Shown piece after piece: positions 3,322-51,359 of a stretch of DNA of 64,000 bases. A program made the translations under genes and the position numbers. Positions within the stretch are counted from its first letter, which is position 1; the number at the start of each line of letters is the position of its first letter. Below the pieces are notes generated by a model. It saw only the letters and a program-made list of their open reading frames with translations, was not told the origin of the DNA and searched no databases. The DNA is from a virus. Taxonomy: Duplodnaviria; Caudoviricetes. The stretch lies in IMG/VR virus record IMGVR_UViG_3300034103_001892, positions 1,337 through 65,336 of that record; one strand, given 5' to 3'.

Positions 3322-4452
3322 TTACCAGGCTCTTAAAATCACAAGATTTTCAGAACCCCTGCCGTTCCATGCTGTTTCTGTGGCCTTGATATCTTTGTAG
3401 GTTTTTCTGGCAGCTGGTTTCCCACCGTTGATCACTGCTTTTAACTGTTCTGCTGGTTTACGCAGGGTTTTTTGTTGAGTTTCAGCTAGGCTATATCCAA
3501 CCACTGTGTTGTTTTTGATGCTAAAAGTTTTAGCGTACTCATCAGCAACCAGGTGTATGATCTTGCGCTTTTTTGTATCATACAACCAAGCTTCTGTTTT
3601 GTCCACAAGTTGACTTGCTGGCAAAGATTTTAAAGATAGTTCTGCAAACTCTGTACAAATCTTAAACTTAGCAGCTCGCTTTTCAGGAGTGACAGGTTTA
3701 ACTTTGCGTGGTTTTCTTTCAACTTTTTTAAGTTGGATATAACTACCACAATCAGCTAAAACAAGTTCACAGAACTTTACACAATTACGCAATTGTATTT
3801 TAGAAAGATGACTGTATCCTGCCACAAGATCAGCATCCTTGCCAGCAACAACATCATCAAATTCTGATAATCTACGTTGCCAGATATCTTTGATATATCC
3901 AATCAGTTGCGGCGCTATGTTCATACTACGCAAAACTGACACGGGTTTGAAATCAGCACCAAGCTTGGCTCCGGCACCAATAAAATCATCAAACAACCCA
4001 TCTAGTTCACCTGCACACTCAACCACTCGCTCACGTAGTCGGTCTTGAATGTTGGGTTTGGCTGCGGATTCTGGTTCTTCAACACTTTCAACCACTGGTT
4101 GTTTGTAATGCAAAAATGTGTCCAACATAGAGTCTAGTTTTTTCTGCTCGCTGGCGGTTAGCACAAGACCTAGATCCACCATGCGGCATAACCAACCCAC
4201 TGTGGGCACAATTTGACTGTCGCTGAGAGACCTAATTTTTTTAGCGTCCTTGGCCCTGTCATGTCTGTCAAGGTAACTTATGATCATGTCCTTGGCATCT
4301 TTTTTGCTGTAGAAGTAATGATACCAGTTGAATGCATAAGTTAACTTGGACAACCGATCTTCTAACGGTTGAACTGCCCAAGTTGGCTCGTTGCCTGTGT
4401 ATTTTGTATCCGGGCTACGCGGGTTTAACAATTTGATCGCTGCTTGTTTCAT
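3322..4452 (-). CDS. Conserved T4-like phage hypothetical protein
   Basis: 376-aa ORF with GGAG RBS and a sigma70-type promoter. C-terminal WLYDTKKRK...KTLRKP...NGR pattern. No function recognised. Confidence 0.6.
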   Translation of the reverse strand: MKQAAIKLLNPRSPDTKYTGNEPTWAVQPLEDRLSKLTYAFNWYHYFYSKKDAKDMIISYLDRHDRAKDAKKIRSLSDSQIVPTVGWLCRMVDLGLVLTASEQKKLDSMLDTFLHYKQPVVESVEEPESAAKPNIQDRLRERVVECAGELDGLFDDFIGAGAKLGADFKPVSVLRSMNIAPQLIGYIKDIWQRRLSEFDDVVAGKDADLVAGYSHLSKIQLRNCVKFCELVLADCGSYIQLKKVERKPRKVKPVTPEKRAAKFKICTEFAELSLKSLPASQLVDKTEAWLYDTKKRKIIHLVADEYAKTFSIKNNTVVGYSLAETQQKTLRKPAEQLKAVINGGKPAARKTYKDIKATETAWNGRGSENLVILRAW

Positions 4453-26919: not shown

Positions 26920-27666
26920 TTAACTAGTCCACTTTTCAACTTGCCCAGGAATAACTGTCTGCTGTGCTGTACCAGACTTGATAACTGTACCTTCGTCAGT
27001 GAAGAAGTTGGTTACGTATCTAGTATCACCGGTGATACTGCTGTAGCTATAGTTACTGCCGCCAGTCCAGTCAAGCAACCACTTGTTGGTTAACTTACTG
27101 ATATAGGTAATTGAAGAATCACCTACGCTGAATCCAATTGCCATGAATCCGGCTGCTGGAGTAGCATCATTGTCTAGAACACATACACCAACTTCTTGAC
27201 AGGTACCAGTAGTACCTGCGCCAGCCGCGGCGCTAACTTGGAAAATTGTTCCAACTGCAGCACCAACTGGCGCACCCATGGACAACCAGTTGGTGTCGCC
27301 TAACGCTGCAATGCGAACGCTTACTCCTACCACAGCAGTGGCAGGATCAATAGCGGTATTGGTGGCCACTAAAAACTTGTGTGCCCCTTTTTGACGCAAA
27401 ATAATACCATCATCTACCCCTGTGACACTGTTGGTAATATTAACAATACATTTGACAATAGGGTTGGTTGCTGACGTTGCAGTGGTTCTAAGACCACCAA
27501 CTACACCTAGGTAATCTGCATTGCTGAGTGTGGTAGGATTGACATTGAATTCTGGATCAGTTAACGAACCAAAGTTTGGAAAACCAATGTCTATACCTAC
27601 TGCTGCACCAGGTGAATTAATGCCCGAATTGGTTGAATATTTTTGAATTTTGAGAGGACGTCCCAT
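26920..27666 (-). CDS. Virion structural protein (MGRPLK family)
   Basis: MGRPLKI...GIILRQKGAHKFLV...YISKLTNK, with strong AAGGAG RBS and a late promoter. Confidence 0.6.
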   Translation of the reverse strand: MGRPLKIQKYSTNSGINSPGAAVGIDIGFPNFGSLTDPEFNVNPTTLSNADYLGVVGGLRTTATSATNPIVKCIVNITNSVTGVDDGIILRQKGAHKFLVATNTAIDPATAVVGVSVRIAALGDTNWLSMGAPVGAAVGTIFQVSAAAGAGTTGTCQEVGVCVLDNDATPAAGFMAIGFSVGDSSITYISKLTNKWLLDWTGGSNYSYSSITGDTRYVTNFFTDEGTVIKSGTAQQTVIPGQVEKWTS

Positions 27667-27693
27667 TTTGTTTTCTCCTTAAAGAAGTCCAAT

Positions 27694-27746
27694 GTGGGTT
27701 CTAGCCACTACGCGGGTGGTGTCCCGCATAAGACGCACCATTGCGT
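27694..27746 (-). promoter_or_regulatory. Structured 5' leader with three tandem hairpins
   Basis: acgca/tgcgt, tatgcggg/cccgcgta and gtgg/ccac stems between TAAATA (27760-27755) and the RBS. Confidence 0.55.
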
Positions 27747-27795
27747 TCATATGTTATTTATGTTATAGTACTTTAAATTACCCGTAAATATCAAC

Positions 27796-42631: not shown

Positions 42632-43626
42632 TTGTTTGTGTAACCAGTGCTAGATCATCTGGCTGCACTTTCCTTGAGTGGAGCCTGCACTGGTTATCTG
42701 GACAAGATCAATATTATCTAGTTGACGGTGATAAGCTAGAACCTTTGATAACAAATCCCATTGCTGTCGGCGGTGACAACAAGGTCACTGCTCATCAGCA
42801 TACTAAAAATCATCCTCGAGGCCTAATACAAACACAAAAAACAATTACAGCGTTACAAAGTCAACCCAGCAACGGCTTGTATTCCTTTTATCCAATTGCC
42901 AACGAAACTGATTATTGGTGCCTCCAACTTAGACTTGATGCATCAAATCTTCGCAGTGATCATTGGCAAAGCATTTTTCATGCACAGCAACAGGAATTAA
43001 TCAGTATTGGTAACCTGTGTTATCAACACAATATTAAAACAGTATATCTAACTGAATCACCAGAAACCATACCATACTATATTGCCACGAGACATGTACC
43101 ACCGTGGACAAATAGTATAAGTGAAATAGAATATGTGAAACTGTTAACTGGTATCACCCAAGATTTACCAGTGTGGGATCTGCGTGAACGTTTGGCATTG
43201 AGTTTGAGACCAATAGCTGAATCTCCATTCTGTGATTACATCAACCCACACCAGGCTCACTTTAGAATCAGTAATCAAAGCCTGTGGTATGACGGCATTT
43301 ACACTGTGCCAAAGATACTGGATTGGTTAAACTTAAATTTAGTGGACTCAAGATTTGCACAATGGCAAGAGATATATCATCATTGGCAACAGTCACAACT
43401 AGACTACGCACGAATGACTTGGCAGTTGCCTGCAATTGTTGATGCAATTGTTCACAATCACTATTATCTAATACCACCAATGACGCTGGTATACGAAGCT
43501 GCTGTGCAACATTGCCTAATATACCAACATGGATTGAATTTAAAGACATGGAATCTACAACAGTTTCCATCAAATACACAAGACCTACATAAATTACTAG
43601 AACCAAACTTTCACAATATCACTTGA
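42628..43626 (+). CDS. Sulfotransferase-like P-loop protein
   Basis: N-terminal VTSARSSGCTFLEWSL, resembling a 5'-PSB loop; C-terminal W...YHHW helix. Confidence 0.45.
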   Translation: MIVCVTSARSSGCTFLEWSLHWLSGQDQYYLVDGDKLEPLITNPIAVGGDNKVTAHQHTKNHPRGLIQTQKTITALQSQPSNGLYSFYPIANETDYWCLQLRLDASNLRSDHWQSIFHAQQQELISIGNLCYQHNIKTVYLTESPETIPYYIATRHVPPWTNSISEIEYVKLLTGITQDLPVWDLRERLALSLRPIAESPFCDYINPHQAHFRISNQSLWYDGIYTVPKILDWLNLNLVDSRFAQWQEIYHHWQQSQLDYARMTWQLPAIVDAIVHNHYYLIPPMTLVYEAAVQHCLIYQHGLNLKTWNLQQFPSNTQDLHKLLEPNFHNIT

Positions 43627-44188
43627 TGCCAATCACAGTGAATCTTTGATAATCACCGTATACAAATTCATCAGCAAGTAGTAATTTACGCATAGGCCAA
43701 GTTTGCACCAATGCATTGAGATCTTGATATGTACGCAAGCTATCCTCTTGATCTCCAGCATTAAGCACCACCAGTGTGCCCAGGGGAATACGATCAAACC
43801 AGCTGGATCCAGCTATGTCATTACAACTGGCATTGATTATCACGCTGGGTTTACGAGCTTGACGATAGTCTAGTTTGTTTACGTCTTGAATCATGTGTTG
43901 AGCTCTTGCATCCAATCTTTGCATAAACTCTTTGCTTAATTTGATATAGTTTGGTTCTATATCCACGTTTATAATTTTTTTAACTGGAAAATTGTCAAGA
44001 GCCATCAATATGCCAAGATTACCATACCAACTGCCAAGGATATAAGCAACATTAAGCATTGGCACATCAAGTTCATCTAGCACGTAGCGCAGTTGTTGCA
44101 GCAAATCTAACTTACCAAGCATGAGCTCACGGCTAAAGCTACCATCTAAGGTTTCAGGACTGGTTTCATTTTCAGCAAAGTGATTCAT
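43619..44188 (-). CDS. Class I SAM methyltransferase-like protein
   Basis: ILGSWYGNL...INVDIE...VIINASC. Start set at ATG 44188, 5 nt after TAAATA (44199-44194). Confidence 0.65.
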   Translation of the reverse strand: MNHFAENETSPETLDGSFSRELMLGKLDLLQQLRYVLDELDVPMLNVAYILGSWYGNLGILMALDNFPVKKIINVDIEPNYIKLSKEFMQRLDARAQHMIQDVNKLDYRQARKPSVIINASCNDIAGSSWFDRIPLGTLVVLNAGDQEDSLRTYQDLNALVQTWPMRKLLLADEFVYGDYQRFTVIGIK

Positions 44189-44199
44189 AGTAGTATTTA

Positions 44200-44587
44200 C
44201 TTCAAGAACTTCTTCGAAGTTCTGTTGATTCACTTCGTTCATCAACATTGTTTTTAAGAGATATCATCCAGATATTTTGGTCATACTTGCCCGTGTTACC
44301 GGGCAAGGTTGAAGACATCATCCGAGTACGAACGGTCATGTGTATAAAGAGATTGTGTTGCCACGCGGAGGCGGTTGTGCTGTACCTCCTACTCTAGCCT
44401 TGACTCACAACGGAACGCAGGTTATCCCATACACACGAAACACCTTGCGCCGCGGTTGTATCTTTTTATCACAGAGCCGCGATCATTTAGCCTAAGTTAG
44501 CCTATACTTTGACGCCCAAGATCCGCTGGCAACGAGCCTTACCTCGGCTAGCTCAATGGGGCTGAGTCACTACACTCAGCACAGAGT
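44200..44587 (-). ncRNA. Candidate large structured non-coding RNA, family not recognised
   Basis: No convincing ORF. At least eight stems, a 12-bp long-range helix, a ~13-bp pseudoknot and two covarying repeated hairpins, all found by hand. Confidence 0.6.
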
Positions 44588-45103
44588 CTATTGGCAGAGC
44601 AGTTTTACTTGATCTGCATTTAATTCCCAGAACAAATCATAGTCCATGATAAACCAATGTCCATGTTTGCCTGTTGCGTAGTTAAAATGTCTTGTGAAAA
44701 AAAGTTGAGAGTGATTTGGCTGTGCCTGTACTGCTACGTATGTGCCTTTGCGATTGAATTTCATGAAAATGATATTGAAGTCACCCTCATCAGCGACATC
44801 CATACATTGTTCAATCCATATATCAAGTGTTTTACATGAGCCTTGAAAGAGTTGGTGAAATGGAAAATCTTTATAGCTTTTACATTCTGCATTAAAGCGC
44901 GGAAAACTTTGTCCAGGAATGATATCGCCCTTGAAACTGCGTATCTGCCCTTCATGCAAGATCTCTTTGCGATGCTGATTACTGCCCCCAATATAAGCGC
45001 CAGAATGCGGAACACGTATAAAACTTTCACCGTAAAGTTCGGTTAAATGTTTTGCCACGGTGTTCTCCCATGCGTTGCCTTTGGCTTTTTGAGAACTGGT
45101 CAT
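44588..45103 (-). CDS. Holliday junction resolvase-like PD-(D/E)XK nuclease
   Basis: QKAKGNAWEN...RVPHSGA...GDII...NAECKSY, an Hjc-like motif set. Confidence 0.8.
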   Translation of the reverse strand: MTSSQKAKGNAWENTVAKHLTELYGESFIRVPHSGAYIGGSNQHRKEILHEGQIRSFKGDIIPGQSFPRFNAECKSYKDFPFHQLFQGSCKTLDIWIEQCMDVADEGDFNIIFMKFNRKGTYVAVQAQPNHSQLFFTRHFNYATGKHGHWFIMDYDLFWELNADQVKLLCQ

Positions 45104-45116
45104 GCAGAATTGTTTA

Positions 45117-45923
45117 TCATCTTTGTACCACTAGCCTAATATTTCCGTCAACCTCATTACCTATGATCAGTTGTCCATAATCTCTTTGAACAAAGTAATT
45201 TTGATCAACAATATGAAAATTGTAGGGCATGGCTTGTATACAGCTTTCTAAATAAGTTACAACATCTATTAAGTTTGTTTGATCTGGATGTTTATTAAAA
45301 ATTGTATTCCAACCGGAATCTGAGGTCAGTGCTACCATGTTTGCTAAACTAAATGTAACATATCCAACGCCTCCTGGTTTTAACATACTGTAGAAGTCAT
45401 CAACGGTGCTGCTGAATTTGTCTAAAGCACAAAAGTGTAGACTGTTGATTGCAATTAGTCTATCAAAATAGTTTTGATGCCCTGCTACAAACCCCTCGTC
45501 ACATATATCGCCTATGTCAGCATCAGGGTGAAAAGGATCTATGCCAATAATGTTGTCCACAAATGGTTTCAGCAAATTTCCGCCACACCCAAGGTCGTAT
45601 ATTGGGCCGTCAAATTTCAATAAATCTTCAATATAATAAAATGTATTAAAAGTCCAATAGCTGTTGAGTTGGTTTTCTCTTGGAGTTGGAGTGTTGCCTG
45701 GTTGCCCACTGGATGTCCAAATTTCTTTTGTTGTTGGTGCTAGCTTAGACTTGATGTGTTTGTATAGGTCTGTGGTTGGAAAGTATTTGTGCCAATAATC
45801 TTCGTGGTATGGATTCTTGAGTTTTAAAGTTTTGAAAAAGGTTCTAAATTGTTCAACATCAATGGCTTTTAACCAAGATGGATCGCGGACATATTTATCA
45901 TATAACATTATAGTTTGCACCAC
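45117..45923 (-). CDS. Class I SAM methyltransferase
   Basis: IYDLGCGGN...GIDP...AINSLHF...MLKPGG. Confidence 0.75.
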   Translation of the reverse strand: MVQTIMLYDKYVRDPSWLKAIDVEQFRTFFKTLKLKNPYHEDYWHKYFPTTDLYKHIKSKLAPTTKEIWTSSGQPGNTPTPRENQLNSYWTFNTFYYIEDLLKFDGPIYDLGCGGNLLKPFVDNIIGIDPFHPDADIGDICDEGFVAGHQNYFDRLIAINSLHFCALDKFSSTVDDFYSMLKPGGVGYVTFSLANMVALTSDSGWNTIFNKHPDQTNLIDVVTYLESCIQAMPYNFHIVDQNYFVQRDYGQLIIGNEVDGNIRLVVQR

Positions 45924-46480
45924 ATAACTATTTCACCAACGCAAGTATTGTCTGGCGAATCTAAAATCAAATCCACATAATCGCATATGTTTTCTAAATC
46001 AAGCCCGTTACCAGTCCAATTACTTCGACTCTGACTCAAGGGGGTATCTAATCTATCAATAGTAAGCAGTGTGGTTTTAAATGCTACAATACCGGTTTTA
46101 AAACTTTCTGTCCACTGCAAGCTATGTGCTTTTAAACTGGCTTTTGACACTCTATAGGTTTCAAATTCAGGATCAACTGCAACAGTGCGTTCAGTGCCCA
46201 CTGACCCAATGTTGATGATATGTCCACGTTTGCCTAGTTCTTTCCAGGCCTTTGCTACTGAAAACAAAAGTTTTGTTTGAGCAAAATTTGCCCAGGATTC
46301 ATGAAAAGGTCCATCAAATGCATTGTTTACAAAGACATCATATTTTTCACTGAGTTCAACAATTTGTTTCACATTCTTGGTAATATCAAATCCTACTTCG
46401 CGACTAATACTAACTCCGTTGAAGCGATTACAAATAGCCTCACCAAGACCTCGATTGCCACCTGTTACCAGCATTTTCAT
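45908..46480 (-). CDS. Short-chain dehydrogenase/reductase (SDR)
   Basis: LVTGGNRGLG, DVFVNNA, IINIGS, YRVSK. Start at the ATGA overlap, 46480. Confidence 0.85.
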   Translation of the reverse strand: MKMLVTGGNRGLGEAICNRFNGVSISREVGFDITKNVKQIVELSEKYDVFVNNAFDGPFHESWANFAQTKLLFSVAKAWKELGKRGHIINIGSVGTERTVAVDPEFETYRVSKASLKAHSLQWTESFKTGIVAFKTTLLTIDRLDTPLSQSRSNWTGNGLDLENICDYVDLILDSPDNTCVGEIVMWCKL

Positions 46481-47601
46481 TCTTGAGCTCCTTGATCCCA
46501 TACTTTAGTAAATTTGTCACCACAAGTCATAGCACATTCAAACAGGCGTCCTTGATCAAGAGACTTGTTCCAGCTGTCTACTAAGTCTTGCCACATTGGC
46601 ACTGCAAATATATTTTCTAAACTATGATTGTGTATATTCAATTTTTGTAGTCCATAATGCTGTAAAAATTTTCTAATATGATTGTTTTTACCGATACCGC
46701 TGAGTTCGTTGGCTTCAGGCAACTGCCCGGGTTCGTTGAATCTAGCATCATATAAATTATGATTAAAAAAGTTACAGGGCAACACCAATCCTTCGCAATT
46801 GATTGCAACTTTACCACCTTGTAATGCGTCACAGGTAATTGTAGTACTATCAAAGTAATCACGCCAGCTTGTGTATTCAGCTTGTAGTTTTGGTAAACGC
46901 TTGATACTGCGATTTTGATATTCAGCCAATGATGTAGGTCGCAAATATCTTATGGTTTTACCATTGCGATTTTGCACAGGCCACTGGTCTATTGCTGTCA
47001 TTGTTTTATGATTAAAAAACCTTCCAGTGCTACGAAATTGTACGTTACAAAATCCCATTTCAAAAGACAGTTCACGTATCTTTTCTAACTCTTCTTGATT
47101 GTGTTCAAACACAATACAATTCCATTGTGCGCGACCGCCTGCGTTTATAAAAGCTTCTGCATTTTTTAAAACAGTTTTGAATTTTACATTTTGTCTGTAC
47201 ACATGATTGGTTGATGATAATCCGTCAATACCAAAATCAACTTTTCCTAGCCCATTTATGATACGAGCCATGCGTGTCCAATAAGCAGATCCGTGAACTC
47301 CGCCATTGGTATGAATATACAACCAAACGTTGGGATTTTTAGCGCGAAAGTCTTCTAATATGTCTAAAAATTCTGGATGCATGATAGGATCGCCGTAGCT
47401 ACCACAGAAGAAAATCTGTTTGCACTTTGACACTATGTCTTTGGTAAAAGCTTTGGATATCACTGCACGATCTAGATGTTTCAACGGCATGTGAGGATTG
47501 ACACCAGCGCCGTTGATATTTCTTGGACACTGCGGGCAAGCAGCGTTACAATAACTGGTTATTTCTAGTTGGTATTCAGTTATGCTATCAAGATTAAACA
47601 T
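46477..47601 (-). CDS. Radical SAM protein with SPASM/twitch-like Cys-rich C-terminus
   Basis: CNAACPQC, GDP, HTNG, GIDG, GLVLPC, ECAMTCG. Confidence 0.9.
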   Translation of the reverse strand: MFNLDSITEYQLEITSYCNAACPQCPRNINGAGVNPHMPLKHLDRAVISKAFTKDIVSKCKQIFFCGSYGDPIMHPEFLDILEDFRAKNPNVWLYIHTNGGVHGSAYWTRMARIINGLGKVDFGIDGLSSTNHVYRQNVKFKTVLKNAEAFINAGGRAQWNCIVFEHNQEELEKIRELSFEMGFCNVQFRSTGRFFNHKTMTAIDQWPVQNRNGKTIRYLRPTSLAEYQNRSIKRLPKLQAEYTSWRDYFDSTTITCDALQGGKVAINCEGLVLPCNFFNHNLYDARFNEPGQLPEANELSGIGKNNHIRKFLQHYGLQKLNIHNHSLENIFAVPMWQDLVDSWNKSLDQGRLFECAMTCGDKFTKVWDQGAQE

Positions 47602-48106
47602 CAGGTAAATCTCTAAAAAAATCTTTGGCTTCTTTTAATATTTCTTGATTGGATTTGAAAATTGTACGTTCTAATTGTGGACCAGATTTTCTGCGTTGTA
47701 TCAACCAGTCAGTGGTTGGAACCACAAAGTTCAAACTCCAGGTTCCGTTGTAGCCAAGATATAGATTTGGTTTGATGCAGGAAGGACCTGAGTCATGAGC
47801 CCAGTACACAGGATAAAACTTTCCATCCCATAGTTCAGATCTAAGTTGGATGTTATCAAACGCAATCTCTTGTATCAACACATGTTTGTCTATAGCAATG
47901 TTTCCGACTTCATCATAGGCATGATCAGTTACTTGTTTGCCATAGTGACAAATTTTCAAGGTATGAGGTCCAGGACTAACCAAAAAATCAAAACTATGAT
48001 TGTCCTGTGCCGCACCCTCGTACAGGGTTTGATAATCGTCAATGGAAATTTTTAGTTGAGGGTCGCCTAATCTACGTTCAACAAATAGTTTTACGTCAAG
48101 TTTCAA
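47594..48106 (-). CDS. Hypothetical protein (radical SAM-associated)
   Basis: 170-aa ORF overlapping both neighbours; YLGYNGTW.L.F. Confidence 0.55.
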   Translation of the reverse strand: MKLDVKLFVERRLGDPQLKISIDDYQTLYEGAAQDNHSFDFLVSPGPHTLKICHYGKQVTDHAYDEVGNIAIDKHVLIQEIAFDNIQLRSELWDGKFYPVYWAHDSGPSCIKPNLYLGYNGTWSLNFVVPTTDWLIQRRKSGPQLERTIFKSNQEILKEAKDFFRDLPDV

Positions 48107-49605
48107 TGTATGACCCCTGCATATCTTGACAATCTATCTTTGTAGCGTTCCATGAGTATTTTCATTTGATCGTCGCCTTTCCAGAACGTGTAGCCTAGAT
48201 TAACAGCGTGTTCCTGTGCTTGTATTCTACGCATTATACGTTTTTTATACGTTAGATCAGGATTGTCCAAGCTTTGCCATTCTGCACCCAGGGGTTGATC
48301 TTGATTTAGACCTTTGATGTGAAATTTTTTATACTCACGATGTATTGTTGTACCATGTTCAACTGTGAACGTTGTGTTAAAGTTAACGCCAATTATGGTC
48401 CCATCGGCAACATAGGGTTGATATTTGGTCAGCATGTCCAAAGTCTGTTGAAAATCTTCATCAGTTTCTGTTGGAAAACCCACAATCATCAACAGGTACA
48501 TTTTTATATTGTACTTGCTGTACATTTTTAAAGTAAAATCTAAATCACGATTGGTAAAGCCCTTACGCATGGCTGTGCGTACTTTGTCACTGCCGGTTTC
48601 TACTCCAATGGCCATTGCATCAGCACCGGCTCGACCCATTAACTCAAAGTCATGTTCAGTGAAATTTTTAACATGGTGAATCACAGCATGACTACTGTAA
48701 CTCAAATAACGATCTGGTAAGTTATGTTGTTTGTAGTAATCTAACAATGTTTGATTAAACTCTCTGAATACCGGAATGTCCCCATTGCACAAAGCATCAT
48801 GAAAAAAGAAGTTACGCACGCCATAGGTTTCATAGTAGTGTATGAGTTCATTGGCAAGTTTGCGACCTTGCTTTACTCTATATCCGCCTGCCATGGTGGG
48901 AATATCGCAAAACACGCATTTCCTAAAACACCCTCTACTGCTTTCCATTGGTAAAACACCGTGATCAAAACCGCTTTGATATTGATCAATTTGATAATCA
49001 CTGAAATCCATGTAGGCATGATCAGAAACCTCTGTGGTCAACGCCATGGTATCTGTGTTAATACCTTGCACGTTGTAATTGCCTTTGATAAGCTCTGGGA
49101 TGGTACTTTCTGCTTCACCGCGAATCCAATGATCAATCAAACCTAGATCTTTGAGTTCGTGTGCAAAATCTGGGCGACCGCTGTAACTGCCGTGTTCTGC
49201 ATAGATCAATCCTTGTCCACCAATTATGATTTCAGCTTGACATTGACTGCGAAGTGTTTTTAAAAACTCTCGTGTGAATCTTTGTGCTTGCCAAGTAAAC
49301 ACACTGAGAAAAATTTTTTCTGGTTTGTGTTCTAATACTTGTTCAGCACATGCTTGTAAAAACTTTGAAAAACATTGTTGAGCTGGTTGGCCAAGATTTC
49401 TATTAGGCAAGAACAAATGATCATCAATCTCAGCAAATACTTCGGGGCTAACTTGTTGGTTAAAGTCTGAAAAGTATTTTAGATTTAGATCAATTACTGT
49501 GCTGCTTTTGCCGTGTTGGTTAAGGATACTTTTTATAATCGCAGGAGCCGCTGCTGGTCTAACCGGCGCTACTCTTGGTACACTAAGTATCACAGCATAG
49601 GTCAT
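48103..49605 (-). CDS. Radical SAM protein with B12-binding-like N-terminal domain
   Basis: IIIGG...GEAE, SRGCFRKCVFCD, GVETGSD, MIVGFPTET. Confidence 0.85.
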   Translation of the reverse strand: MTYAVILSVPRVAPVRPAAAPAIIKSILNQHGKSSTVIDLNLKYFSDFNQQVSPEVFAEIDDHLFLPNRNLGQPAQQCFSKFLQACAEQVLEHKPEKIFLSVFTWQAQRFTREFLKTLRSQCQAEIIIGGQGLIYAEHGSYSGRPDFAHELKDLGLIDHWIRGEAESTIPELIKGNYNVQGINTDTMALTTEVSDHAYMDFSDYQIDQYQSGFDHGVLPMESSRGCFRKCVFCDIPTMAGGYRVKQGRKLANELIHYYETYGVRNFFFHDALCNGDIPVFREFNQTLLDYYKQHNLPDRYLSYSSHAVIHHVKNFTEHDFELMGRAGADAMAIGVETGSDKVRTAMRKGFTNRDLDFTLKMYSKYNIKMYLLMIVGFPTETDEDFQQTLDMLTKYQPYVADGTIIGVNFNTTFTVEHGTTIHREYKKFHIKGLNQDQPLGAEWQSLDNPDLTYKKRIMRRIQAQEHAVNLGYTFWKGDDQMKILMERYKDRLSRYAGVIH

Positions 49606-51359
49606 AACAAATCGTTGTTGTAATTGGTGAATCCATTTTCTTTAACAACTTTGAGAGTGTTTTCTACACGACTTGCCAAATCATCTTTGTGACTCACTAA
49701 CCAGATTGACTTGTTGCGTTCACGACTCATCTTTTTCAACAGCGCCAATCCGTTTTCAACACCCTGTGTGTCTAGGCCATTGTCCATGAGCTCGTCTATG
49801 AACAGTAGATTAATGGGTTGATACAAACTTTCCCATACATCGCGAAATGCCCAACTCATGCTTAGAATAAGTCTATTACGTTCGCCTCTTGACAGATTGT
49901 CAAAGTCAAGATCTCTTCCTAGTTCTGTGATTTCTACACTGAGATCATTTTGGAAAACCACTGTGTGCGGCAAACCAATGCGATCTAGATAGTAGGTCAA
50001 ACGTTGATTAAGATAACTTAGATTTTGATTTATAATTTTCTTTCGTACAAAACTGTCTTTGTTGGTCAGTAGCTTGATTATAAAATCTTGGTGATCTTGT
50101 AATCTTGTGAGTTCATTGAGATGATTATAGTCAACTGTTTGCAATGCTTGATGTTTCATGTCATCAATTTGTTCTTGATAAGGATCCTTTTCTGTGGATC
50201 TAGCCGCATGATCTCGGCGCAAACCTTCAAGACTGTTGCGATGATTCAGTGCTTGCTCCAGTGAGTCATAAAACACAGTTGGTGCTACGCCCAGCTCACC
50301 TTGATCGTCAAGTTCGTTTTGATGTTCGTTTTTCTGTGTGTCGTTGGTCAACAGTTGTAGTGCTAGTTCTTGTAATTCTTTTTGTTTCTTTTCTTTGACT
50401 GTGTCAAGACTGTTGTCGTGTATTTCTGTGCCACAAGCAAAGCAACGATGTTCGCTGATTTCTTCAATTTCTTTTTGAAGCTGTTTTACTTGTCGATCTA
50501 GTTTGACGTTGTCTGCCTCAATACTTTTGATCCAACGATTACACTCGTCAATGATTTTTTTCTTGCTATGAAATTCTTCAAGATCTCTATGTGCCTGTAC
50601 TTCTTGATCGATGTCTATGTGCTCAAGGCTGTCAATAGCTGTTTGAAGTTGATCACAATCTTCTTTTTGTTTTTTGAGCCACAGTGTCTGTCTCTTTTGT
50701 AAACTGACAATTTGTTCTTCAATTCTACGATTGGCTTCTTGCACAGCTCGAATTCGTAGTTCTTCACTTTGTATTTCTTCTTTGGTGGTTCGGTTTAGTT
50801 CTTTGATACGATCAGCACGTTCACTGAGCAAAGTTATACCCAACAGTTGCTCAATCATCAATCGTTGATCATTGGCTTTCATGCTCAAAAAGGGCTCGGT
50901 GTAGGTATTCAATGCAAGTATATGCTTGAACATGTCATGGCTGATGTTCAGTAGATGCTCGATTGCTTCTTGTGTTTCTCTACTGTCGCCCTGTGCGTCA
51001 TCAGTTATCGCTTGTTCTTCGTTGTTGACATAAAATTTTAGAATGTTGGGTTTACGCCCACGTTCAATTTTGTAGTCTTTGCCGTTTACAGCAAATTCTA
51101 ATGAAACCAACATGTTCTTAGCGTTGGTTTTGTTCACTAGATTGTCTTTGCGTATGTTTGACAAGGCATTGCCATACAATGCATAACTCAACGCATTTAT
51201 GATGGTGGTTTTACCAGTGCCATTACGACTACCATCGCCTCCAAGATCTAGGTTTTCTCCCAGTACCAGGGTGAGGTCACGACGATCAAAGTTTATGGCT
51301 TGGGTAGCATTGCCCACGCTCATGAAGTTTTTTACGGTAAGTGTTTTAATATTAATCAT
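49602..51359 (-). CDS. gp46: Recombination ATPase (T4 gp46 / SbcC / Rad50)
   Basis: KNFMSVGN, NGTGKTT, Zn-hook CFAC, LSRGE, LFIDE, LVSH. Confidence 0.95.
   Translation of the reverse strand: MINIKTLTVKNFMSVGNATQAINFDRRDLTLVLGENLDLGGDGSRNGTGKTTIINALSYALYGNALSNIRKDNLVNKTNAKNMLVSLEFAVNGKDYKIERGRKPNILKFYVNNEEQAITDDAQGDSRETQEAIEHLLNISHDMFKHILALNTYTEPFLSMKANDQRLMIEQLLGITLLSERADRIKELNRTTKEEIQSEELRIRAVQEANRRIEEQIVSLQKRQTLWLKKQKEDCDQLQTAIDSLEHIDIDQEVQAHRDLEEFHSKKKIIDECNRWIKSIEADNVKLDRQVKQLQKEIEEISEHRCFACGTEIHDNSLDTVKEKKQKELQELALQLLTNDTQKNEHQNELDDQGELGVAPTVFYDSLEQALNHRNSLEGLRRDHAARSTEKDPYQEQIDDMKHQALQTVDYNHLNELTRLQDHQDFIIKLLTNKDSFVRKKIINQNLSYLNQRLTYYLDRIGLPHTVVFQNDLSVEITELGRDLDFDNLSRGERNRLILSMSWAFRDVWESLYQPINLLFIDELMDNGLDTQGVENGLALLKKMSRERNKSIWLVSHKDDLASRVENTLKVVKENGFTNYNNDLL

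Follow-up and report, generated by a model that had tools for sequence, protein, structure and literature searches.

A short word repeated with matched variable letters in the tail of a predicted knotted RNA of T4-like lake phages

Why would a phage carry the same hairpin-like motif twice, 54 nt apart, in a gap between two genes? The question was raised by a 64,000-nt stretch of DNA (the window: positions 1,337 to 65,336 of IMG/VR record IMGVR_UViG_3300034103_001892) from an uncultured giant T4-like lake phage. A sequence-only reading of the window had noticed two repeated hairpins on the minus strand, with an identical internal loop and compensatory stems, and had likened them loosely to kink-turn or box C/D motifs. 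We found that the observation is real but was mis-scoped: the two copies are the tail of a large knotted RNA. Comparison with related loci shows a predicted noncoding RNA (ncRNA) that is conserved, strand-specific, and multiply knotted; its tail repeats a single word, and the variable letters of the two occurrences are matched.

The motif occurs twice in the window and was not expected there by chance. Copy 1, acau-GA-ccg-uucguacu-cgg-AUG-augu, runs from 44341 to 44315 on the minus strand (coordinates throughout are those of the whole 64-kb stretch; the RNA is also numbered as q = 44621 - coordinate), thus beginning 1 nt beyond the end, 44340, first given for it. Copy 2, guau-GA-cca-aaauauc-ugg-AUG-auau, runs from 44286 to 44261. 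An 8-bp cuugcccg/cgggcaag hairpin (44307-44286) lies between the copies, and a GA-rich hairpin, guugau-GA-ac-gaa-gu-GA-aucaac, lies at 44246-44224, both on the minus strand. Apart from the 1-nt offset, these elements were all present as the sequence-only reading had listed them, and its spacing of 54 nt is correct for the 3' ends of the copies (55 nt for the 5' ends). The pattern ATGACC-N5-14-GGATGAT had 2 matches in the window and 2 in the whole 65,336-base record, all on the minus strand, with 0.00 expected by chance and matches in 0 of 100 shuffles. The looser pattern TGACC-N3-16-GGATGA had 2 matches against 0.25 expected, and at least 2 in 3 of 100 shuffles.

The sequence around the motif is conserved in other phages. 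On the minus strand, a gap of 340 nt separates two open reading frames (ORFs), an upstream ORF at 44588-45103 (Pfam PDDEXK_15, E 1.2e-25) and an ORF 3' of the gap at 43619-44248; the copies occupy the 3' end of this gap. Among 80 loci fetched via the PDDEXK protein, nhmmer found the gap sequence downstream of the PDDEXK gene in 57, in some of them about 1 kb further downstream, and the gap was conserved far better than its flanks. Two independent patterns, one for a pseudoknot within the gap and one for the twin boxes that the copies contain, were each found in at least 120 IMG/VR contigs. Both patterns occurred once per contig in all 80 matches listed per scan, so that the number of twin-box matches per locus was exactly one among those listed. 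Twin boxes lay at most 260 nt downstream of the pseudoknot pattern in 139 of 200 matches, which gave 118 unique sequences. The G+C content is 0.47-0.55 within the gap compared to 0.33-0.45 in its flanks. The recurrence in 57 of 80 loci, the G+C content, and the covariation described below define a core at 44260..44590 (q31-q361, minus strand) that extends from the PDDEXK stop codon to beyond the second box. We take the gap to encode a G+C-rich ncRNA of about 330-390 nt, read from the minus strand and spanning about 44204/44260-44590.

The fold of this predicted RNA is strongly supported by covariation and holds three crossing (pseudoknot) pairings. Helices were drawn by hand from alignments and from an unbiased pair scan, and were then tested by pair counts against 500 shuffles; RNAalifold on raw MAFFT alignments gave poor consensus structures. 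The full model, with 80 pairs in 15 helices, was tested on 42 relatives of the window's branch. Cells were paired in 81.9% of cases compared to 70.2% in the shuffles, changes on both sides were seen in 56 of the 80 pairs (36.0 shuffled), and there were 391 double-change cells (117 shuffled). The covariation was 0.340, compared to 0.145 shuffled and at most 0.098 in slid controls. None of the 500 shuffles was as high in any of these four measures. A partial model on 116 sequences from both branches had a covariation of 0.233 compared to 0.116 shuffled, again with 0 of 500 as high. Across the helices around the boxes, which this strand test covers rather than the boxes themselves, there were 436 G-U and 93 A-C combinations when read on the minus strand. 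This excess of G-U over A-C indicates an RNA read from the minus strand of the window, in agreement with the strand preference proposed from the motif alone.

Matched letters in the two boxes

The letters that vary between genomes are matched between the two boxes. Aligning all unique copies defined two 11-nt boxes, ACUC-R-GAUGA-W (box 1) and AUCU-R-GAUGA-W (box 2), with (A/G)UGAC before each. In the window, copy 1 (44317..44338, minus strand) consists of UGAC at 44335-44338 and box 1, ACUC-G-GAUGA-U, at 44317-44327; copy 2 (44263..44283, minus strand) consists of UGAC at 44280-44283 and box 2, AUCU-G-GAUGA-U, at 44263-44273, with a 7-nt spacer after UGAC that is fixed in most copies. The two boxes agreed at R in 112 of 114 sequences (54 A/A, 58 G/G, and 2 G/A) and at W in 113 of 114 (66 U/U, 42 A/A, 5 G/G, and 1 mixed). 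R and W varied independently, and all R x W combinations occurred. The mutual information between the boxes was 0.85 bits for R and 1.12 bits for W, compared to at most 0.34 for any other column, and the coupling also held inside each branch.

The matching is not explained by linkage or recombination. The order along the sequence is R1, W1, R2, W2, and neither process can give all R x W combinations with the pairs matched; the letters must have changed in concert, repeatedly and under selection. Even among near-identical RNAs, some differ from each other at both R positions simultaneously. In one lineage (loci L053, L056, and L057), both boxes read GUCGGAA, with GAUGA replaced by UCGGA, and both upstream UGAC words have changed too; no complement of this variant word was found in those loci. 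The twin boxes of the three loci are at about 3826-3895 and 3849-3918.

We think it probable that a stand-alone, multiply knotted ncRNA shows one word twice to one reader, and that the two "hairpins" are its twin boxes. Of the earlier proposal of a repeated site of recognition or processing, the repeated site is what we keep, and two copies of one such site is still the best reading; the free-standing pair of hairpins is replaced by the 3' part of a larger RNA.

The reader might be a protein, with the boxes as twin sites for, e.g., a dimeric phage or host RNA-binding protein and the core merely positioning them, and we consider this unlikely. Sponge RNAs such as CsrB and RsmZ, and nutL and nutR of lambdoid phages, are analogues for twin protein sites. 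A near-identical pair of sites at a fixed short spacing, with invariant core letters, is what such a protein would call for, and the lineage that altered three letters in both boxes at once looks as if the specificity of a reader had changed. When R is G, the box contains GGAUGA in a loop-like context, which is near the CsrA selection consensus. However, R is A in both boxes of 54 of the 114 sequences, and the resulting AGA removes the GGA that CsrA-type proteins require; a CsrA/RsmA sponge site, which needs GGA in a loop at every site, was rejected on these grounds. More generally, a protein that reads R and W would have to switch specificity repeatedly, given the paired flips in near-identical RNAs, and a protein that ignores R and W should let the copies drift apart, whereas 112 and 113 of the 114 sequences stay matched. 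A protein reader would thus be hard to square with repeated paired flips among close relatives.

Architecture of the RNA and the stems of the two copies

The predicted core is knotted between its domains and leads directly into the boxes. All features below are on the minus strand and are given from 5' to 3'. The 5' domain of the window's branch (44482..44590) is made of covarying helices and has no match to Rfam family RF01718. It contains hairpin Pa (44561-44580), in which 7 of 7 pairs have double changes; helix 2 (44557-44560 with 44515-44518; 100% paired, 3 of 4 pairs with double changes), which encloses hairpin Pb (44525-44552); and hairpin Pd (44489-44502). Helix Pe (44477-44481 with 44451-44455) is 86.6% paired, and the region 44415..44481 also holds a 3-bp inner helix of Pe, which is 100% paired, and a conserved A-rich strand. 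Hairpin Pf (44415-44450) is 95.6% paired, with double changes in 10 of 13 pairs. The loop of Pf (44430-44435) pairs with 44339-44344 to form Pg, a long-range helix spanning about 90 nt (5 of 5 pairs with double changes; 82.3% paired among 116 sequences), and the 3' strand of Pg overlaps the "acau" outer stem of copy 1.

Downstream of Pf is an H-type pseudoknot (44367..44411) made of stems S1 and S2. S1 (44406-44411 with 44374-44379) is 100% paired with double changes in 4 of 6 pairs among the 42 relatives, and 94.6% paired among the 116 sequences; S2 (44385-44389 with 44367-44371) is 100% and 88.6% paired, respectively. Loop 1 of the pseudoknot is engaged by a further crossing helix, Pi (44348-44351 with 44392-44395; 94.0% paired, 4 of 4 pairs with double changes). 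The pseudoknot, Pg, the hairpin Pt, and both boxes align across the two branches, and the helices covary on the joint alignment. As classified by nhmmer, the 5' domains of the 118 unique sequences were 60 of the Polynucleobacter-1 kind (RF01718), 37 of the window's kind, and 21 unassigned.

In the register that most sequences use, the 8-bp hairpin between the boxes, Pt (44286..44307), is 81.3% paired and has 24 double-change cells compared to 13.5 shuffled (0 of 500 as high). It resembles an intrinsic terminator but lacks the U-tract, being followed by UAUGACC. A CAAG word in loop 1 of the pseudoknot (44399..44402) can pair with the 5' base of Pt (44304-44307); this pairing is 95.8% paired, with 38 double-change cells compared to 13.5 shuffled (0 of 500 as high) and slid controls of at most 0.154. 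The same word forms the 3' tail of Pt (44286-44289), and both occurrences covary with the 5' base of Pt. The CAAG repeat is either an echo or an alternative pairing, and it may be a second echo in the RNA that marks an alternative fold.

Two small conserved hairpins follow an A-rich spacer after box 2, one with a UGA/GA(A)A internal loop (44224-44246, the GA-rich hairpin above) and one with a GNA-type loop (44205-44223). In the alignment, read by eye rather than by pair counts, their stems change by compensatory pairs across loci and the letters of the loop and internal loop are kept. The two hairpins (44204..44246) probably belong to the 3' end of the RNA. A hammerhead ribozyme was considered for the hairpin at 44224-44246 and its relatives and was rejected: what the relatives share around the 2-bp stem and its GNNA loop is limited to UGA and GAAA, the longer string GAUGAG that some loci show arises from the variable stem, and no Rfam family matches.

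The compensatory stems described for the two copies were not borne out. Their covariation was 0.113 compared to 0.120 shuffled in the 116 sequences (476 of 500 shuffles as high) and 0.117 compared to 0.126 in the 42 close relatives (483 of 500). The stems were pairable in 75% of cells among the 42 relatives, compared to 26-39% in slid controls, because their letters are near-invariant. The outer stem of copy 1 was paired in just 11-55% of cells, its 5' strand being taken by the covarying Pg, and the middle inner pair of copy 2 was unpaired in 52 of 107 sequences (C-A in 44 of 107).

These results bear on another possibility, which we regard as quite unlikely: that the copies form separate local hairpins with a kink-turn or C/D-like fold and are bound by an L7Ae-type or similar protein. 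The letters of the window permit such a fold, the inner stems are pairable in most cells, and UGA opposite GAUGA recalls boxes D and C. By eye and uncounted, L053 and L057 can rebuild the outer stem, purine loop, and inner stem of copy 2 from other letters. Against this stand the lack of covariation, the claim of Pg on the outer strand of copy 1, and the open middle pair of copy 2. The features that define kink-turn and C/D motifs are also missing, so that this likeness does not hold. Where a 3-nt bulge would be required, the putative C stem is separated from GA by A-U only (2 nt). The A expected to be near-invariant beside the C stem is A in 88, G in 13, C in 2, and T in 4 of 107 copies of box 2, and is visibly more often G in copy 1, where UGG is common. 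No Rfam C/D family matched the boxes at E up to 10, the only C/D match in 43900-44900 being ceN111 at 44846-44879 (E = 2.1), inside the nuclease ORF. Such a hairpin would leave the matching of R and W unexplained.

Box 1 may sit in a hairpin loop. When folding was constrained to leave the box single-stranded, the variable sequences on its two sides formed better structures than their shuffled versions (mean z -1.8, n = 117), which favors a stem. For such an alternative stem of copy 1, in which the two flanks of the box pair with each other, the association of 3-mers was weak: UGA occurred with downstream UCA in 46 and CCA in 9 of 82 sequences, and UGG with UCA in 7 and CCA in 9 of 30.

Several other candidates were rejected. 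Kink-turn registers and anticodon-loop mimicry were each judged by eye. A small ORF that has both boxes in frame (44202-44339, 45 aa) was rejected because the spacing of the boxes in relatives varies by non-multiples of 3. A ribosome hop was dropped because no ORF enters the boxes.

Genomic setting and relatives

The RNA keeps its place after the gp47-gp46 genes and is not tied to a particular nuclease or downstream gene. The phage is T4-like, with gp46 and gp47 upstream of the RNA and a baseplate hub cluster 3' of it on the opposite strand; by gp46, its closest cultured relative is the Pseudomonas jumbo phage PA5oct (51% identity). Of 178 loci derived from the patterns, only 13 had a PDDEXK gene in the vicinity of the RNA. 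The commonest upstream gene encodes a 143-aa SegE-type GIY-YIG protein (120 loci, Pfam E 7.4e-34), and the 3' neighbor is mostly on the opposite strand (111 vs 48). The downstream ORF of the window (43619-44248) had no relative in IMG/VR. Because both neighbors vary, neither the nearby nuclease gene nor the downstream gene is likely to be the partner of the RNA.

Searches with known families left the gap unassigned. No tRNA or tmRNA was found in it, no Rfam family matched it at the gathering score, and at E up to 10 (43900-44900) neither RF01718 nor any family at the boxes was found. The sole Rfam family in the window at the gathering score was a full-length freshwater-2 RNA (RF02980) at 27664-27750 on the minus strand, just upstream of an AUG (73.3 bits compared to a gathering score of 49.9).

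The RNA might instead be the 3' untranslated tail of the upstream messenger RNA, with a structure that protects the message and boxes that serve as endoribonuclease sites for excising the Pt segment. The RNA does start at the upstream stop codon and is followed by conserved small hairpins, and the promoter scan described below detected no promoter of its own. However, what lies upstream varies (GIY-YIG, PDDEXK, or about 1 kb of extra DNA after the PDDEXK gene), the RNA is far more conserved than any neighbor, about 300 nt with three crossing pairings exceeds the need of a stabilizer, and a nuclease that tolerates changes in R and W would not keep them matched. We give this explanation a low probability. 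A DNA-level element, such as iteron-like origin repeats or another protein-bound site with incidental RNA structure, is very improbable: the boxes are direct repeats of identical words in a locus between convergent gene blocks, but there are just 2 repeats, their co-changing letters are as problematic as for a protein reader, box 2 is palindromic only via a U-G pair when R is G and so is not a DNA palindrome, and the helices around the boxes are under RNA-level selection on one strand, as judged from the G-U excess and the compensatory pairs.

The annotation of the neighboring genes was also inspected. The ATG at 44248 of ORF 43619-44248 falls within conserved noncoding hairpins (44188-44248 region, minus strand), and these hairpins recur in relatives that have different downstream genes. 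The in-frame ATG at 44188 (189 aa) is the likelier start, and the first 60 nt of the ORF are probably not coding. Between gp46 (49602-51359) and the PDDEXK gene, the minus-strand region 45117-49605 contains a block of methyltransferase-like and short-chain dehydrogenase-like ORFs and two Cys-rich ORFs that look like radical-SAM proteins, the last label being assigned by eye. In most relatives, a small nuclease gene is much closer behind gp46 than in the window phage.

Cultured jumbo phages yielded no match to the RNA. BLAST of the window RNA and of the RNA from a sister-branch locus (L010) against 50,697 GenBank phage records gave no match, and an nhmmer search of the regions syntenic to the locus in PA5oct and Atu_ph07 was also negative. 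In PA5oct, this stretch (L261:9017-10531) is annotated with just four tiny ORFs (117-153 nt) and includes 660 nt free of annotation; it may hold an unrelated or very distant RNA. In Cronobacter phage GAP32 (L383:11651-12456) and Escherichia phage Turkey5 (L382:11657-12472), the syntenic position, which follows gp46 and an EndoVII gene and precedes a gene on the baseplate side, is a gene-poor gap of about 800 nt, without any annotated coding sequence in GAP32 and with just two tiny hypothetical ORFs in Turkey5. Within the GAP32 gap are a box 2-like word of 12 nt, another GGAUGAUA, and a hairpin that carries the complementary UAUCAUC. Profile searches of the GAP32 and Turkey5 gaps were non-significant (nhmmer E 0.31 and 0.74; covariance model R1 E 0.11).

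Some members of the family are in contigs assigned to bacteria. A scan of bacterial genome contigs with the twin-box pattern gave 119 matches, compared to our own estimate of about 130 chance matches in 596 Gb of genome contigs, and 10 of the 119 were family members by nhmmer (L283, L296, L298, L299, L329, L345, L353, L355, L370, and L381). Several of these 10 bins are labeled Methylococcaceae or Methylococcales, and one Haliscomenobacter. These members are either a hint to the host or mis-binned phage contigs.

Proposed role and known systems

As we picture the stand-alone RNA with one word shown twice, it would probably be made at the end of the gp47-gp46(-small nuclease) transcription unit, on the same strand. 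Its elements follow in the order of a core of Pf/Pg, S1/S2, and Pi; UGAC and box 1; Pt; and UGAC and box 2. The knotted core would act as a scaffold that presents the 7-letter word twice in equivalent exposed contexts, and a single reader of both boxes would depend on the two words matching. That R and W flip together between near-identical phages makes a nucleic-acid reader, or pairing from box to box or from box to DNA, likelier than a protein.

One specific version, which we offer as an unlikely and frankly speculative proposal, is that selection keeps the sameness of the boxes itself. As polymerase passes Pt, the exposed RNA of either box would hybridize to the template DNA strand of the other, and the persistent R-loop would tie the knotted transcript to the gene it came from. 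Pairing between the RNA of one box and the DNA of the other would require the words to match, would let them drift between genomes, and would need no third covarying partner. The upstream G-run of ColE1 RNA II reportedly pairs with template DNA near the origin. The RNA-DNA hybrid of the phage could prime or mark DNA replication or recombination, as an RNA II-type origin with a built-in clamp. An A-rich purine tract lies 3' of box 2 in most relatives. T4-type phages initiate replication from R-loops, according to Kreuzer and Brister (2010, PMC3016281). In a less specific version, one nucleic-acid reader may pair with both boxes.

Several observations weigh against a single reader of a twin word in a stand-alone RNA. 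No third covarying column was found in the whole family or in either branch, the best other columns (mutual information 0.25-0.43) being at background level. In the flanking DNA of 139 loci, about 1.2 Mb, complements of each locus's own 7-mer were no more enriched than mismatched variants. GAUGA, ACUC, AUCU, and UGAC are invariant in the data set save for one lineage, which leaves room for a protein that reads those letters. The inner stems of the two copies are pairable in 87% and 81% of cells among the 116 sequences (89.7% and 77.0% among the 42), and a crude cognate versus non-cognate comparison of the longest stem gave no signal (4.94 vs 4.72 for copy 1; 3.70 vs 3.71 for copy 2). A promoter scan gave 2 sigma-70-like sites compared to 3.8 expected, i.e., no promoter belonging to the RNA, and a terminator scan of 43900-45300 gave 0 terminator-like sites. 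No RNA run was found to contain the stretch, and we infer the transcript, its ends, and its stability from sequence.

If the twin-word reading is true, hundreds of giant T4-like lake phages carry a large, intricately knotted RNA of which only the front domain of one branch has been catalogued so far (in 2010). Ordinary covariation in RNA selects complementarity, not sameness. Identity coupling of two short words without a complementary partner is an unusual evolutionary signature. It suggests that a nucleic acid reads the boxes, or else that the mechanism requires one site to substitute for the other, and it provides a handle on an orphan class of RNA.

The front domain is the RNA known as Polynucleobacter-1 (RF01718). 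In a table, Weinberg et al. (2010, Genome Biol 11:R31, PMC2864571) rate it as likely to be an RNA and likely to act in cis as a regulator, and give Burkholderiales and fresh water or estuary as its sources. In a permissive Rfam scan of eight relatives, the 5' domain of three sister-branch loci (L010, L015, and L016) matched RF01718 at 113-120 bits (gathering score, 37). This domain immediately precedes the same core with pseudoknot and twin boxes, and fresh water is the habitat of both. The 141-position Rfam model stops before this core, leaving the pseudoknot, Pt, and both boxes uncatalogued, and the window's own 5' domain has no match to it even at E up to 10 and folds differently. The varying neighbors argue for a separate RNA and against a regulator in a 5' untranslated region. 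By these comparisons, the RNA of the window would be a new branch and an extension of a barely described family.

Other known RNAs share single traits with it. As in kink-turn and box C/D RNAs, UGA faces GAUGA over a short loop, twice per RNA, in the manner of D'/C' and C/D, but there is no 3-nt bulge and no covarying regular stem, the key A varies, and the host is bacterial. Like GOLLD and ROOL, it is a large, heavily structured, phage-borne RNA standing apart from the neighboring genes; unlike them it is smaller, does not match their Rfam models, and couples the identity of twin boxes, which to our knowledge GOLLD and ROOL do not.

Identical sites are found in pairs in the take-off and landing codons of the T4 gene 60 ribosome hop, in the overlap regions of site-specific recombination sites, and in the R repeats of retroviruses; the G-run of ColE1 RNA II mentioned above is of this kind too. 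The phage RNA differs from these systems in that no ORF enters the boxes and no recombinase or reverse transcriptase is nearby. What it has in common with them is a pair of short words kept the same within a genome and free to change between genomes, with no third covarying site.

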